In this document: positions 47,792-48,003 of the stretch, piece after piece
How positions within the stretch are numbered: position 1 is the stretch's first letter
Layout: every line of letters begins with the position of its first letter
Source: Escherichia coli
GTDB taxonomy: Bacteria; Pseudomonadota; Gammaproteobacteria; Enterobacterales; Enterobacteriaceae
DNA: 64,000 nt
Assembly (NCBI RefSeq): GCF_003334785.1
Contig: NZ_QOWV01000006.1
Direction: 5' to 3' (one strand)
The notes under the pieces: model-generated
Told to the model about the DNA's origin: nothing
What the model saw: the letters and a program-made list of their open reading frames with translations, nothing else
Databases searched by the model: none
Translations under genes and position numbers: made by a program

Positions 47792-47854
47792 TTAAACAAA
47801 AACGCAGAAGGATAACCTTCTGCGTTACAGTTGCTGACAACGTGCGATTTATCT

Positions 47855-48003
47855 TGCCGGATGCGGTGTTAACGACTCATCCGCGTTGACATGAAAAGAC
47901 GCGTTAGGCGTCGTATCATGCAGCGCTTGTCGGATGCGGCGAGTGCCTTATCCGACCTACATCGATGATCCGCGTAGGCCTGATAAGCGTAGCGCTTCAG
48001 GCA
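47855..48003. repeat. Cluster of REP/BIME-type palindromic elements
   Basis: Motifs GCCGGATGCGG, GTCGGATGCGGCGAGTGCCTTATCCGACCTAC and inverted GTAGGCCTGATAAGCGTAGCGCTTCAGGC between ydhP and sodB. Confidence 0.75.

Follow-up and report, generated by a model that had tools for sequence, protein, structure and literature searches.

The convergent ydhP-sodB intergenic region of a phylogroup-A-like Escherichia coli very probably combines two elements, a hairpin that works as a bidirectional intrinsic terminator and, inside the sodB 3'UTR, a cluster of REP palindromes forming an atypical BIME that is recombinogenic at the DNA level. The region was analyzed as part of a 64,000-nt stretch of DNA, referred to throughout as the window. 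A first-pass annotation, made from the sequence alone, had named ydhP and sodB as the flanking genes, and both assignments are supported by the open reading frames and by the annotation of matching E. coli records. A 401-nt query spanning the ydhP/sodB junction matched every one of the 5,426 complete E. coli genomes, in each case in the ydhP-sodB interval, and the unique flanks of the REP cluster gave one match per genome.

Aligned to MG1655 (NC_000913.3 1719000–1785000), the window aligns collinearly to the reverse strand over all of its 64 kb and is 99.99% identical, with 7 mismatches and one indel, a 73-bp difference within the REP cluster. The annotation had singled out this cluster as the likeliest place for a length difference from reference genomes, and it holds the only one against MG1655. 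A 24-kb piece of the window is 100% identical to many natural isolates, and on these alignments the window reads as chromosome near K-12 in this region, yet not K-12.

A scan of the whole window at Rfam gathering thresholds returned nothing in 47792–48025; Rfam has no REP family. Elsewhere in the window it matched STnc550, RprA, rydB, tRNAs and HPnc0260. RprA (13433–13540, minus) and RydB (19144–19204, plus) are known sRNAs, both full-length here. STnc550 is a full-length match of 396 bits at 46069–46459 (plus) that covers the purR-ydhP intergenic region including the cydH/ynhF open reading frame. This "sRNA" family therefore overlaps the mRNA of a small protein, which may be co-transcribed with ydhP; the published K-12 terminator table groups ynhF:sodB:ydhP. 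Open reading frames of 47–74 amino acids over the REPs (47869–48012, minus; 47934–48089 and 47965–48189, plus) were rejected as by-products of palindromic DNA.

Table 1. Features of the ydhP-sodB region and its neighbors, in window coordinates
Feature	Position	Strand	Remarks
purR	45043–46068	minus	open reading frame
cydH/ynhF	46368–46457		small open reading frame, 29 codons
ydhP	46622–47791	plus	MFS transporter, converging on sodB; open reading frame and annotation of matching E. coli records
ydhP stop codon	47789–47791
U-rich tract	47788–47800	minus	UUUUGUUUAAUUA (sodB-strand reading), directly 3' of the hairpin
Terminator hairpin	47801–47826	both	perfect 11-bp stem, 4-nt loop, AACGCAGAAGG / ATAA / CCTTCTGCGTT; bidirectional intrinsic terminator of sodB (minus) and ydhP (plus)
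REP unit a	47855–47883	plus	Y, degenerate; score 38; foot GTTG, not GTAG
REP unit b	47884–47921	minus	Z2-like, degenerate; score 29, marginal
REP unit c	47928–47960	plus	Y; CTAC foot; score 39
REP unit d	47973–48002	minus	Z1, one mismatch to consensus; score 55 of a possible 60; 0 mismatches to CTTATCMGGCCTAC
73-bp segment	47867–47939		absent in the K-12 lineage; position ambiguous by 14 bp (47853–47925 to 47867–47939)
89-bp segment	47879–47967		foot of a, unit b, unit c and spacer; absent in the short allele; bounded by direct repeat ATCCGCGT(T/A)G, spacing 89
sodB 3'UTR	48025 down to ~47798	minus	~228 nt; all four REPs inside
sodB	48026–48607	minus	open reading frame and annotation of matching E. 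coli records
mepH	48735–49550	minus	open reading frame
grxD	49884–50231	plus	open reading frame

The hairpin is exactly as the first-pass annotation described it: its stem is complementary at 11 of 11 positions, with six G-C pairs, and it begins 9 nt past the ydhP stop codon. For the RNA of each strand the predicted folding energy was about −19 kcal/mol (z = −6.2 and −6.5), and none of 200 shuffled sequences was as stable. Perfect 11-bp hairpins with loops of 3–8 nt arose by chance in 6 of 60 shuffled windows, while the real window contains six such sites, all at gene ends. The hairpin is not a chance structure, nor is it unique; features of this kind are real and common.

Past the stem the sodB strand continues as UUUUUGUUU, placing the G+C-rich stem-loop and U-tract of an intrinsic terminator on the minus strand. 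A terminator consensus scan likewise ranked the hairpin, with the stem followed by TTTTGTTTAAT, as the top site of the region on that strand. The ydhP strand instead reads ACAGTTGC after the stem and has no U-tract; an A-rich run precedes the stem. Because the U-tract lies on the minus strand, the hairpin reads as first of all an intrinsic terminator for sodB, whose stop codon lies about 228 nt before it. Its earlier description as sitting "just after ydhP" holds for the position and left the function unnamed, with the U-tract on the sodB strand and a bidirectional terminator mapped here in K-12.

The K-12 evidence comes from supplementary Table 16 of bioRxiv 10.64898/2026.03.23.713779, which reprints a list of 306 bidirectional terminators mapped in earlier work and in which entry 141 has the identical sequence. 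The entry gives an overlap region at 1736082–1736114, found in both log and stationary phase, for convergent transcription with ynhF:sodB:ydhP as the affected genes, together with an 11-bp stem, a 4-nt loop, −17.8 kcal/mol, six U in the 3' flank, two A in the 5' flank and an empty REP column (bioRxiv 10.64898/2026.03.23.713779). By coordinate mapping, this overlap corresponds to window positions 47798–47830 and the K-12 sodB 3' end to about 47798, and in K-12 transcripts of both genes therefore end at the hairpin. The 3' ends were mapped in K-12, which carries a two-REP allele and a hairpin sequence identical to that of the window. The list of 306 probably originates with Ju et al. 2019, who used SEnd-seq. 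Among the K-12 bidirectional intrinsic terminators of convergent genes, the window hairpin corresponds to entry 141 with no difference in the hairpin itself, and its U-tract is asymmetric.

In the mechanism we propose, sodB mRNA would be ended by the hairpin together with UUUUUGUUU, and ydhP (cydH-ydhP) transcripts would also stop at the hairpin, so that the two 3' ends would overlap by about 33 nt as a bidirectional terminator implies. For ydhP, we infer that termination depends either on the stem-loop and its poor tract or on collisions between polymerases. Since the REPs occupy the interval from the sodB stop codon to the terminator, and ydhP transcripts end at 47830, short of them, the REPs are transcribed essentially as sodB 3'UTR.

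REP units were scored by local alignment against the three consensus sequences (Y, Z1 and Z2) quoted in PMC11208160, with five shuffled windows as background (best scores 22–27). Where the earlier description had counted at least three REP-like palindromes in alternating orientation, we found four, all scoring above background (unit b only marginally) and strictly alternating +,−,+,− as Y, Z2-like, Y and Z1. No other site in the 64 kb rose above the shuffled background. The 81-nt pair of units c and d recurs at a median of at least 25 places per genome (range 7–49; at least 40 pieces in 1,730 records). Match to the consensus, copies dispersed through the same genomes and an extragenic position, all four units falling between the stop codons of ydhP (47791) and sodB (48026), together characterize these palindromes as REPs. 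REP hairpins have a conserved tetranucleotide, GTAG/CTAC, at their foot, which the REP-associated transposase recognizes; it is present in c (CCTAC) and d (GTAGG), with GTTG/CAAC in its place in a and b. Folded individually, units b (−13.5 kcal/mol, z = −5.0), c (−16.8 kcal/mol) and d were predicted to form stable single stem-loops, and unit a (−7.2 kcal/mol, z = −1.1) was no better than shuffled sequence.

The alternation of Y and Z palindromic units is that of the BIMEs of Enterobacteriaceae. The cluster differs from them in mixing Z2-like and Z1 units, in its spacers of 0, 6 and 12 nt and in having two degenerate units. The IHF consensus WATCARNNNNTTR had no match in 47792–48025, and the Y-Z1 spacer is only 12 nt long; assignment as BIME-1/RIP, in which the L motif between Y and Z1 carries an IHF site, was rejected on this ground. 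BIME-2 elements alternate Y and Z2 regularly, with canonical S and l/s spacer motifs, and the mixture of Z2-like and Z1 units here already speaks for an atypical element. Because the IHF-site motif is absent and the Z types are mixed, we classify the cluster, from its sequence, as an atypical BIME.

The first-pass annotation had also called the cluster the only repeat-rich DNA in the window, which is correct for canonical REPs and not for repeats at large. The window also contains tandem tRNA-Val(GAC) genes, valV and valW (37320–37478, minus), with an 81-nt period and 92% identity; the HPnc0260 match at 37196–37358 (plus) runs antisense to one of the two and is unlikely to be a gene in its own right. 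A perfect 12-bp hairpin, ACTGACGGATGC...GCATCCGTCAGT, lies directly past grxD at about 50245–50276 and fell below the REP consensus score in our scan; in K-12 it is bidirectional terminator entry 140 (grxD:lhr:mepH) and is called REP127 (bioRxiv 10.64898/2026.03.23.713779). Another perfect 12-bp hairpin, with a GCGTGTGGTCAG stem at 63606–63635, is K-12 entry 139, ydhI:slyA:slyB (bioRxiv 10.64898/2026.03.23.713779). A 13-bp hairpin followed by a T-rich run (48702–48731, minus) marks the end of mepH immediately upstream of the promoter region of sodB and is probably the mepH terminator, insulating sodB.

The REP cluster is strain-variable, as the earlier description anticipated, and exists in three length alleles across the 5,426 genomes. 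Alleles were counted by allele-specific segments and junctions, as query coverage proved unreliable when flanking pieces were joined. The long allele of the window, with four units, served as the reference form; its specific 73-nt segment is carried by 1,350 of the 5,426 genomes, including ATCC 8739 and a BL21 derivative, which match the 401-nt or the 73-nt query at 100%. The K-12 form, which lacks 73 bp, was found in 356 genomes by a junction-specific count. By subtraction, the remaining ~3,720 have the short majority allele, which lacks 89 bp, a figure that includes rare forms such as IS insertions. Carriers of the short allele include O157:H7, O104:H4, LF82 and ST648.

The 73-bp segment is bounded by a 14-nt direct repeat, CTTGYCGGATGCGG, which forms the heads of units a and c at a spacing of 73, and its deletion leaves a hybrid Y unit. 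K-12 REP128 (REPv128ab, downstream of sodB) accordingly shares with the window its locus, its flanks, unit d and the body of unit c, and differs in having two units in place of four, the missing 73 bp having joined unit a's head with unit c's body. All 45 records sampled from the 356 genomes with the K-12-type junction were K-12 derivatives or K-12-like O16:H48 strains, and because of this we read the 73-bp deletion as a marker of the K-12 lineage. The majority E. coli allele has the composition Z1' + Y. Strain 1919D3 is intermediate, with the long architecture and the short-allele versions of units a and d, a form that about 11 genomes appear to have. The alleles differ at five nucleotides concentrated in unit d, with identical flanks, a pattern that suggests gene conversion of unit d from another REP. 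Because the 73-bp and 89-bp indels are both bounded by direct repeats, the cluster would behave as mobile, recombinogenic repeat DNA, in which unit number shifts by recombination or slippage between units of the same orientation.

Unit d also offers a target for a mobile element. The natural target of IS621 is ATCAGGCCTAC, within REPs (PMC11208160), and unit d contains this sequence at 47974–47984. IS621 belongs to the IS110 family and encodes a bridge-RNA recombinase; compared with its known REP targets, unit d of the window carries the exact target with the site empty. In strain K99B the element is inserted in unit d, after GTAG (47977) and before GCCTGATAAG, an insertion point at the CT core of the target. 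The exact IS621-unit d junction occurs in five genomes (K99B; KO11FL, of the E. coli W line; ST2350; HBUT-L; and hubt-sl), and the Z1 unit is thus a natural landing site for IS621. In K99B the insertion (3279–4553 of the locus sequence) separates the sodB 3'UTR from the terminator.

The terminator itself is far more constant. A 77-nt segment containing the hairpin was found at 95% identity or higher in 5,425 of the 5,426 complete E. coli genomes, and among six aligned alleles that span the variation the stem is invariant, the sole change being a loop substitution in a single strain. That strain, OkiPb01695, has GTAA for ATAA in the loop, the only hairpin change seen; its annotation gives ydhP as frameshifted, and it lacks 3 nt beside the sodB stop codon.

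To other species we extended the comparison with a degenerate pattern for the sodB C-terminus, which returned 100 loci from a species-level genome collection; 15 had convergent sodB and ydhP, all of them in Enterobacteriaceae. The interval between the two stop codons ranges from about 35 to 155 nt in these loci, and every one contains one strong hairpin. A homologous ACGCAGAAGG stem is present in E. whittamii, Kluyvera and Trabulsiella, followed on the sodB strand by a U-rich run (TTTTTGTTTT in E. whittamii and Kluyvera, ATTTTAAAT in Trabulsiella). The corresponding position is taken by unrelated hairpins in Citrobacter, Enterobacter, Pluralibacter, Kosakonia, Phytobacter and Mangrovibacter. 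Because the homologous stem is unvarying across the six E. coli alleles, E. whittamii, Kluyvera and Trabulsiella, it shows no compensatory changes and gives no covariation support. REP units at the sodB/ydhP site were confined to Escherichia among the 15 loci, with a Z2 + Y pair in E. whittamii. Since other genera keep a hairpin and have no REPs, the terminator appears to be the conserved functional element and the REPs a later, Escherichia-specific insertion into the interval between stop codon and terminator.

As RNA, the 244-nt 3' region was predicted to fold, at −90.8 kcal/mol (z = −5.7), into the terminator, a separate stem-loop for each of units b, c and d, and a weak one for unit a. The K-12 allele gave two REP stem-loops and the terminator, and in the majority short allele the two REPs were predicted to pair with each other in one long hairpin. 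Minimum-energy folds of all three alleles also contain a weak helix between the unique flanks, CUGAUGGC / GUUGUCAG (48014–48021 with 47833–47840), which closes the REP cluster and includes three G-U pairs; it may be a chance pairing or a remnant of a pre-REP structure.

REPs are context-dependent stabilizers and partial terminators; in E. coli about 60% of them are located between convergent genes, and some 30% of convergent intergenic regions have a REP. sodB is catalogued as a REP-bearing transcript, REPv128ab (PMC10100675), and REP structures resist 3'-to-5' exonucleases (PMC6061677). On the sodB REPs and the sodB-ydhP region we found table entries in the literature and no dedicated study. 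Each REP unit or pair could fold into a stem-loop in the sodB 3'UTR, and by analogy with other REPs these stem-loops would retard the degradation of sodB mRNA by 3'-to-5' exonucleases and may contribute some termination or pausing. On this analogy, these particular REPs probably stabilize sodB mRNA. REPs within 15 nt of a stop codon reportedly interfere with translation termination (Liang, Rudd and Deutscher 2015); at 23 nt past the stop codon of sodB, the start of unit d is beyond that range.

It is quite possible, if somewhat short of probable, that the cluster has no role at the RNA level and consists of selfish or neutral REPIN-like doublets, spread by the REP-associated transposase, reshaped by slippage and tolerated in a permissive 3'UTR. 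The coexistence of three length alleles across E. coli, the degeneracy of two of the four units and the retention of the terminator in genera with no REP here all agree with such an origin. Because their number varies among strains and they are absent at this site in other genera, sodB can be expressed without the REPs, which could be no more than neutral passengers. In favor of this reading, terminal REPs show no link to longer half-life genome-wide; against it, individual REPs do stabilize upstream mRNA and REP-bearing convergent gene pairs are more highly expressed on average. A neutral origin is, moreover, compatible with a modest regulatory effect. That the three natural 3'UTR alleles go as far as to set different levels of sodB mRNA stability or read-through seems to us rather unlikely.

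A cluster that acts mainly on DNA, through gyrase, IHF, HU or DNA polymerase I and an effect on supercoiling or the nucleoid, is a still less probable reading. BIMEs with alternating Y and Z units, the architecture found here, are reported to show such binding, but the intergenic region lacks the IHF consensus, hence is not BIME-1/RIP, and a recent study found REPs to have no measurable role in chromosome compaction or long-range contacts. Most improbable of all is that the hairpin terminates ydhP only and that sodB ends elsewhere, for example at the REPs, which can be partly Rho-dependent terminators, or by Rho: the hairpin does follow closely on the ydhP stop codon, but its U-tract is on the sodB strand, with ACAGUUGC after the stem on the ydhP strand, the K-12 table has overlapping transcripts from both directions at the hairpin with the sodB end at ~47798, and Kluyvera and Trabulsiella have the same stem and then a U-rich run on the sodB strand. 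A bidirectional terminator preceded, on the sodB strand, by a REP-bearing 3'UTR is the reading we retain.

REPs, BIMEs, bidirectional terminators and the targeting of REPs by IS621 are all established, and the locus is already annotated in K-12 as REP128 and as a mapped terminator. In practical terms, the REP cluster is a clean strain marker, with the 73-bp deletion tagging the K-12 lineage. The natural allelic series of four, two and two' REPs, plus the IS621-disrupted form, suits tests of the effect of REPs on a well-studied, highly expressed mRNA, and the IS621-carrying strains are natural mutants for testing the role of the terminator and REPs in sodB expression. Were the alleles to set different sodB mRNA stability or read-through, K-12, in which the regulation of sodB by RyhB was worked out, would have a lineage-specific 3'UTR unrepresentative of most E. 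coli.
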